From the IMG/VR virus record IMGVR_UViG_3300026085_000093, positions 128,001 through 192,000 of that record: a DNA stretch of 64,000 bases, one strand, 5' to 3'. The stretch's first letter is position 1, and each line of letters starts with the position of its first letter. Below are positions 29,194 through 30,275 of this stretch, piece by piece. Origin of the DNA: a virus (taxonomy: Duplodnaviria; Caudoviricetes). The translations under genes were made by a program, and so were the position numbers. The notes beneath the pieces are model-generated. The model ran no database searches, was not told the origin of the DNA, and saw only the letters and a list, made by a program, of their open reading frames with translations.

Positions 29194-29427
29194 TTACCAG
29201 AACGGCTGTCCTGTCTTTTTACTAGTTTCTAAATTTTCTTTTACTATACCTGCTAGGATTTCTCTGTCCTCAACACTCATCTCGTAAAGTTCTGACACCG
29301 AAACACCTCCACGCATGTACCAAGACAATTTGTAGAGATCATGTTTTATTTGTTTTGATTCGTTGTCAAGGATCTCAACTTGTTTGAGAATGTCCTCTAA
29401 GGACAGAGCTGAGATCCTTAGGCGAAA
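29194..29427 (-). CDS. gp51-like chaperone extension ORF without a canonical start (likely reached by -1 frameshift); not in the ORF track
   Basis: Manual translation: FRLRISALSLEDILKQVEILDNESKQIKHDLYKLSWYMRGGVSVSELYEMSVEDREILAGIVKENLETSKKTGQPFW*. The frame is closed by TGA at 29442-29440, and there is no ATG/GTG/TTG for the first ~35 codons. Confidence 0.75.
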   Translation of the reverse strand, partial: FRLRISALSLEDILKQVEILDNESKQIKHDLYKLSWYMRGGVSVSELYEMSVEDREILAGIVKENLETSKKTGQPFW

Positions 29428-30275
29428 AAATTTGATTGATCAAAAGTAATCGGAACATCAATAGTTTCAGGTGCTCCTCTTTCGATATCCGCTGGACTTA
29501 GACGTGCCTTGAATGGCGGTATTGCAAACTTTTCTCTTTGTTCGTCTAAATGAACTATTAAAGAAGTATAGATATCTTTGTCAGCGTTTTCAAAAAATTC
29601 TATAATATGATCTTTGTTAGTTACAGGTTCTTCATCTTGAAACTGTATTGACACAATACTGTTTAGAATATTACTGATGTTAAGTTCAGTAACTCTAACA
29701 AATGCTTCATTAAACTGTGTAATTTTATCTGTTTCGCTCATGCTATCGTCGTTAACAATTCTAAACAAACGTTGTTCTTCGAATGTTTTTAAAGCAATCT
29801 CTGTAAACTTTTTGTACACCATTGGTGCAATTTCAAAACTAAAGTCGCCAATTTGAAAAACATTTTGATACTGTCTTGCAATTAGTCCATCGAGCACTGT
29901 GCGCAAATCAAGTTGAAATGATCTTTCTTCGTCTATTTCTTTAACTATTACACCTAGTTCCATCATCTCGCCATAGGTTGCAATTCTAATTGCAATTAAT
30001 ATAGCATCAATGTCGATGCTAGGTATTGCCCAACCATCTTTGATATTAGGCATACAACTTTGAATTACGTTTACTGTGCTTTGGCCGTTTAATAAAGCAT
30101 CAGGAGTTTTGAACATAAGTTCATCCTTTGCTGTCATAGCATACACAGGGTATTCACCCGTTTGCTCAGGCACAAGACTACCAGGACGATAAAAATTTCC
30201 ACCACTAGGTAATTTGATATATAATTTAGGCTGTCTAAAATGTTTAGACAGCGGGTTTGCTGTTGCTGTCTGCAT
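29418..30275 (-). CDS. gp26: Baseplate hub assembly/tail chaperone, gp26-like
   Basis: NPLSKHFRQPKLYIKLPSGG...YAMTAKDELMFKTPDALLNG...DIDAILIAIRIATYGE, ending in FDQSNFFA; divergent from the tape measure gene. Confidence 0.75.
   Translation of the reverse strand: MQTATANPLSKHFRQPKLYIKLPSGGNFYRPGSLVPEQTGEYPVYAMTAKDELMFKTPDALLNGQSTVNVIQSCMPNIKDGWAIPSIDIDAILIAIRIATYGEMMELGVIVKEIDEERSFQLDLRTVLDGLIARQYQNVFQIGDFSFEIAPMVYKKFTEIALKTFEEQRLFRIVNDDSMSETDKITQFNEAFVRVTELNISNILNSIVSIQFQDEEPVTNKDHIIEFFENADKDIYTSLIVHLDEQREKFAIPPFKARLSPADIERGAPETIDVPITFDQSNFFA

Follow-up and report, generated by a model that had tools for sequence, protein, structure and literature searches.

A conserved slippery heptamer at the end of a gp26-like baseplate hub assembly gene suggests a programmed -1 ribosomal frameshift in jumbo phages

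A gp26-like gene and the -1 frame beyond its stop codon

The window analysed here, a stretch of 64,000 nucleotides from a Caudoviricetes virus (positions 128,001 to 192,000 of the IMG/VR record IMGVR_UViG_3300026085_000093), carries on its minus strand a gp26-like baseplate hub assembly gene, whose 0-frame ORF (29418..30275 in the ORF list) encodes 285 aa and ends at a TAA stop (29420-29418). The ORF matched PF12322 (T4_baseplate) in the Pfam scan, with an E-value of 1.3e-5 and 25.4 bits, barely above the cut-off of 24.5, and phrog_150 (baseplate hub, E 1.4e-8) in the PHROG scan. The 285-aa product lies above the curated PF12322 profile cut-off, as do its closer relatives, whose bit scores are 74-98. 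The family of the 0-frame protein comprises more than 6200 database homologues, nearly all of them 281-293 aa long, which corresponds to the 0-frame part only. One PF12322 gene in total is present in the 236-kb virus record that contains the window.

The gp26-like gene is divergent from a tape-measure-like gene of the plus strand (30353..33385 in the ORF list; 1010 aa), for which all matches were weak: phrog_4200, tail length tape measure (E 5.6e-6); and PF20155, TMP_3 (E 0.027). The same divergent arrangement of the hub gene and a tape-measure-like gene is found in RaK2, 121Q, PA5oct and CBB. A 151-aa GIY-YIG-type ORF (27469-27924) is flanked by a gp46-like gene (25451-27226) and by the region of the hub gene. 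The proteins of the window clade do not have the four cysteines (CxxC ... CxxC, at residues ~108-116 and ~255-270) that are kept in the isolates Atu_ph07, Phosso and 121Q and in the single-ORF relatives described below, where they probably form a zinc ribbon.

The minus-strand end of the gp26-like ORF was re-read as TCA AAT TTT TTC GCC TAA, in agreement with the initial annotation, which had proposed that a -1 frameshift fuses the gp26-like protein to a start-less ORF, giving a product of about 360 aa. Two overlapping X_XXY_YYZ heptamers are present here, both in register with the 0 frame: A_AAT_TTT (29433-29427) and T_TTT_TTC (29430-29424). The second (29424..29430 on the minus strand, within the 0-frame codons AAT TTT TTC) is the one conserved in relatives and our proposed -1 slip site. 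The -1 frame is closed, as had been described, by a TGA (29440..29442, minus strand) three codons before the heptamer and is then open for 81 codons to a TAA at 29196-29194. The reported absence of a canonical start from its early part was borne out as well, the earliest being a TTG (codon 34), with the earliest ATG at codon 38, both counted from the slip site. The extension proper (29194..29427, minus strand) consists of the 77 codons past the slip and the stop TAA; it would form a C-terminal domain and is translated as FRLRIS...SWYMRGG...EDREI...NLETSKKTGQPFW. At the junction, the slip product would read ...DQSNFF-RLRISALSLEDILK... and would total 361 residues. Direct scans of the 81-aa -1 ORF returned no Pfam or PHROG match.

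A stem-loop, likely a frameshift stimulator, occupies 29367..29420 of the minus strand. Its 14-bp outer stem (29420-29407 with 29380-29367) includes two G-U pairs, starts 3-4 nt past the heptamer and encloses a hairpin (29405-29391); the 12-bp stem first described at this place is the core of this longer one, and the inner hairpin reported with it was recovered. RNAfold gave the structure a minimum free energy (MFE) of -24.7 kcal/mol (z -4.58), and none of 200 dinucleotide shuffles was as stable. We counted it as a likely stimulator on the usual expectation of a structure 5-9 nt downstream, the stem of the window itself starting at 3-4 nt.

The slip site and its surroundings in related phages

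We fetched 80 related IMG/VR loci (protein identity 42-99%), 78 of which include the end of the gene. The sequence NNT TTT TTC was found in the same register in all 78, and in the gapless alignment TTTTTTCG was without variation across 49 distinct 96-nt junctions, the mean column identity of which was 71%. Nine cultured jumbo myoviruses, from several genera, show the same arrangement: T_TTT_TTC is present in RaK2, 121Q, PA5oct, CBB, SCTP-2, Atu_ph07 and Phosso; and T_TTT_TTT stands at the slip site of XacN1 and Xoo-sp13. The heptamer is therefore conserved in register in homologous loci, the point on which the initial annotation had asked for a check, but it is not the heptamer named first there. 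A_AAT_TTT is present in the window, yet it is broken wherever the preceding codon is AGT, GAT, CAT, GCT or CGT, so that the conserved heptamer is T_TTT_TTC instead. The codon preceding the T run (AAT, AGT, GAT, CAT, GCT or CGT) encodes N, S, D, H, A or R and has T as its third base throughout; this variation of the residue with a constant T ending indicates selection on the nucleotide and not on the residue. In four RNA libraries, contigs from more distantly related phages share sequence with the window solely at 29422-29461, an island round the slip site; judged from these contig matches, nucleotide conservation is much higher over this interval than in the rest of the gene.

The recurrence of the frame relation bears directly on whether it is real. 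Homopolymer runs are error-prone and the frame break lies inside a T6 run, as would be expected of an assembly or sequencing indel, which had been named as a possible refutation, or of a gene in decay. The same relation was found in the 78 independent metagenome contigs, in the nine isolates and in contigs of several unrelated sequencing studies, and purifying selection acts on both frames, which speaks against decay; we regard this explanation as having practically no chance of being correct.

The peptide of the -1 frame is conserved along with the heptamer. All the related loci have -1 ORFs homologous to the extension, with a near-fixed length of 77-78 codons, and conservation of the peptide (FFRxRIL.W.L..IL ... 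WYMRGG ... EDREI ... NLETTKK.G.PF) begins at the slip site. The upstream stop of the -1 frame lies 0-39 codons before the site in relatives, mostly 3 or 9. Past the heptamer, nearly all relatives have an Arg codon first in the -1 frame, and each of the four CGN codons is used; the 0 frame at that codon encodes A, G, V, E or D and reaches its stop (TAA, TGA or TAG in relatives) after 1 or 4 more codons.

Conservation of the -1 peptide could also mean that the downstream frame is a separate small gene (about 45-78 aa) that has its own initiation or depends on termination-reinitiation and is never fused to the gp26-like protein. Such an ORF is annotated in five of the isolates (121Q gp595, CBB gp249, XacN1 ORF316, SCTP-2 gp87 and Phosso 319), the downstream frame being either a hypothetical small ORF or uncalled in the nine isolate records, none of which carries a frameshift annotation. 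Three clades (L013-15, Atu_ph07 and Phosso) show a stop-start overlap, ATGA, in which the ATG overlaps the TGA stop and where reinitiation is possible. At that position the window has CTA, where these others have ATG, and further relatives have ATA, ACA, GTA and other triplets. The first ATG, GTG or TTG of the -1 frame is scattered among relatives from codon 3 to codon 38, no start codon is conserved, and near the conserved N-terminal part of the peptide a start is absent from most lineages, the window among them. A real start for the second ORF in homologues, which had been put forward as evidence against a frameshift, is accordingly possible in a few clades and lacking in most lineages, and the family is not accounted for by a small gene with separate initiation. 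Other observations against such a gene are that the called ORFs have ragged N-termini (40-98 aa), that conservation starts exactly at the heptamer, that the domain is fused in frame in relatives, and that a separate gene would not need the nucleotide-level selection seen on the heptamer. We consider a separate small gene very unlikely. A frameshift joining the gp26-like protein to the start-less ORF, as first proposed, is what the invariant in-register heptamer and the conserved -1 peptide without a start argue for, and the colinear single-ORF relatives described below and the stable fold directly past the heptamer give the product of about 360 aa further backing.

The RNA structure downstream of the heptamer was compared across the relatives in two ways. 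The 5' arm always begins 3-7 nt past the heptamer. The position of the 3' arm varies: it is distal in the window clade, proximal in others and farther away in Atu_ph07, Phosso, L069 and L081. Among 49 sequences, the distal and the proximal helices were each ~72% paired, compared with 26-53% in slid controls, and both contained compensatory changes; a single consensus helix fixed for all clades was rejected, the two 3' arms being paired to the same degree. In addition, MFE values of 71-nt segments, taken along about 1 kb of 56 distinct loci by a sliding scan, revealed a stability peak directly past the heptamer (mean -17.3 kcal/mol, compared with -10.6 +/- 2.0 kcal/mol elsewhere). The 71-nt segment after the heptamer ranked in the top 5% of stability in 31 of the 56 loci and outside the top 10% in 18. 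Of the conservation and covariation of the stem that were to be checked, the compensatory changes and the stability peak at the site were found, whereas the place of the 3' arm was not constant. A downstream structure is common and correctly placed, though it is no single fixed helix.

The conserved structure also bears on transcriptional slippage, by which RNA polymerase would add an extra U in the U6 run of some transcripts and the same 361-aa protein would be made. The run is a homopolymer (6 T; 7 in XacN1 and Xoo-sp13), and the product would be identical, so that the comparative evidence for the fusion fits equally well. For bacterial RNA polymerase to slip efficiently, a run of six is short, known cases being mostly of 9 or more. 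The run has not been lengthened in any lineage, and the conserved structure lies downstream of it at the distance usual in ribosomal frameshifting. In three metatranscriptome libraries, contigs span the slip site without an indel, with T6 as the main form, although RNA libraries seen as contigs lose rare slippage variants and may include DNA carry-over. The short run and the downstream structure make transcriptional slippage an unlikely explanation, and the slip would instead be ribosomal in nature.

The long form in relatives and in known systems

A full HMMER scan of the representative library with the 78-aa -1 peptide gave 159 matching cluster representatives, most of them ragged small-ORF calls (40-98 aa). 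In 17 of the 159 the match lies at the extreme C-terminus of a protein of 319-351 aa, and PF12322 precedes the extension domain in all nine of the long proteins scanned. These single-ORF proteins are colinear with the trans-frame product of the window across the junction (FDQSNF-FRLRIS in the window, LDxSx-xFRxKLI in the long proteins). The four single-ORF genes that were looked up all lie directly behind a second, shorter PF12322 gene (287-329 aa), whose product ends at the same ..NFF.. point as the 0-frame product of the window. Two of these four short paralogues have lost the heptamer (AAT TTC TTT and AAT TTT ATG), which is a small natural control. An uninterrupted long ORF next to a separate short paralogue in relatives indicates that the long form is real and that both forms are probably needed; these natural in-frame fusions show no more than that a long protein of this kind is functional. 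A further protein of 383 aa (P0055) was rejected as a fused homologue, being an assembly duplication of the C-terminal third. In two of the two-gene contigs (L084 and L093), an intein interrupts a T4-type portal gene (PF07230 + PF14890) at a distance of two genes from the hub-assembly pair, and a GIY-YIG gene resembling SegE follows downstream.

Frameshift-type genomes that are complete (n = 5) contain exactly one PF12322 gene each. In the maximum-likelihood tree, the short paralogues of the two-gene phages are nested in the frameshift-type clade (support 96/96), with the long paralogues outside that clade; T4 could not be placed, owing to the length of its branches. A tblastn search with the single-ORF long form retrieved 93 isolate records, none of which covers the query beyond the junction, which suggests that cultured relatives are all of the frameshift type.

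AlphaFold2 predicts, with confidence, a single fold for the 361-aa fusion (pLDDT 93.7, pTM 0.91), in which the extension is modelled with high confidence as two long helices (294-322 and 336-356). The fold matches of the fusion in BFVD are T4-like baseplate hub assembly proteins; no solved relative was found in the PDB, either by sequence or by a Foldseek fold search.

T4 has two separate PF12322 genes and no frameshift: gp26 and gp51 are hub assembly chaperones (PMC3004832) of the same protein family as the window gene, which shares with them a position beside hub and tape-measure genes. The ends of the two T4 proteins resemble those of the two products proposed here: gp26 has an FF pair three residues before its end (..KEFFELL) and in this resembles the short form of the window (..SNFFA); and gp51, like the long form, extends beyond the PF12322 domain, by about 48 aa. 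The description of the small ORF itself as gp51-like was not sustained, since gp51 is mostly PF12322 domain and the similarity of the extension to its C-terminal tail is weak and confined to the second half of the extension. There, the extension profile and the gp51 family are colinear at their extreme C-termini, with an hhalign probability of 23-25% and a pairwise E-value of about 8e-4, a weak match; hhalign of the extension against the single T4 gp26 and gp51 sequences gave nothing. It is the long product as a whole that is plausibly the counterpart of gp51. The precomputed domains of the T4 gp51 homologues P0271-P0362 list PF28602 besides PF12322; PF28602 is not recorded on the window family.

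Xu, Hendrix and Duda reportedly described, in 2004, a conserved -1 frameshift in the tail assembly chaperone genes of long-tailed phages. The lambda gpG/gpGT-type frameshift has been reviewed (PMC5009743), and its logic, which the initial annotation had invoked for this gene, applies in part. Lambda and, on the reading proposed here, the window gene have in common a -1 slip at an X_XXY_YYZ heptamer located in a tail-assembly gene within a few codons of its stop, a short and a C-terminally extended product, and a location beside the tape-measure gene. The genes themselves are not homologous: PF12322 is the sole Pfam match of the window gene, which matched no tail-assembly-chaperone family in Pfam or PHROG and gave no sequence or fold match in the PDB. 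Moreover, the lambda chaperone gene is directly upstream of the tape measure gene and co-oriented with it, whereas the window gene, on the minus strand, is divergent from the tape-measure-like gene of the plus strand and belongs to a protein family that acts in baseplate hub assembly in T4. The resemblance to lambda G/GT is one of logic, without homology and without co-orientation. In the lambda type the short form binds the tape measure protein and the extension binds the tube protein; a chaperone role of the window gene towards the tape-measure-like protein, and a set ratio of its two products, are conjectures of the initial annotation. A second known case is gene 10A/10B of T7, where a -1 frameshift occurs at G_GUU_UUC (PMC5009743). 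It resembles the proposed slip of the window gene in the UUU/UUC Phe codons in the A site, in the use of bacterial ribosomes, and in being a structural gene with a minor, C-terminally extended form, and it differs in being a capsid gene with another P-site codon and a distant stimulator.

Proposed mechanism and significance

From these comparisons, the T_TTT_TTC region is very probably the site of a programmed -1 ribosomal frameshift of the gp26-like gene. Most ribosomes would stop at the TAA and release the 285-aa short form. A fraction would pause at the stem-loop while their tRNAs occupy AAU-UUU-UUC, move back by one base on U_UUU_UUC and read 77 more codons in the -1 frame, to give a 361-aa long form ending in the two-helix C-terminal domain. 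We infer that both forms are made and needed and that together they would play the parts of T4 gp26 (the short form) and gp51 (the longer one). Read most simply, the relatives indicate that phages of this group require the short form as well as the long one, obtained via two genes or via one gene with a slip.

From this, we lean slightly towards a broader proposal, namely that one frameshifting gene does the job that is split in T4 and in some uncultured relatives between a short gp26-type and a long gp51-type paralogue, that the efficiency of the slip sets the ratio of the two chaperones, and that frameshifting and duplication have replaced each other in evolution. The last of these, the interchange, is suggested by the tree, in which the frameshift clade contains the short paralogue of the two-gene phages.

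Our search of the literature on gp26, the baseplate hub, frameshifts and PF12322 found no report of such a frameshift. Neither the hub protein nor the small ORF is among the proteins listed in the CBB virion proteome paper, where no frameshift is mentioned; the phAPEC6 paper also yielded nothing.

If confirmed, the finding would add, beside the G/GT chaperones, a second and unrelated phage tail-assembly gene family with a deeply conserved -1 frameshift, and would place such a frameshift in the T4-related lineage, where none is known. The annotation of a core structural gene would be corrected in about 90 isolate genomes (RaK2, 121Q, PA5oct, CBB, Atu_ph07 and others) as well as in thousands of phage contigs from metagenomes, in which the extension is missing or is called as a hypothetical small ORF. 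It would also provide a way to approach T4 gp26 and gp51, two proteins of poorly understood role and without a solved structure, and would constitute a natural case in which recoding and gene duplication appear to be interchangeable.
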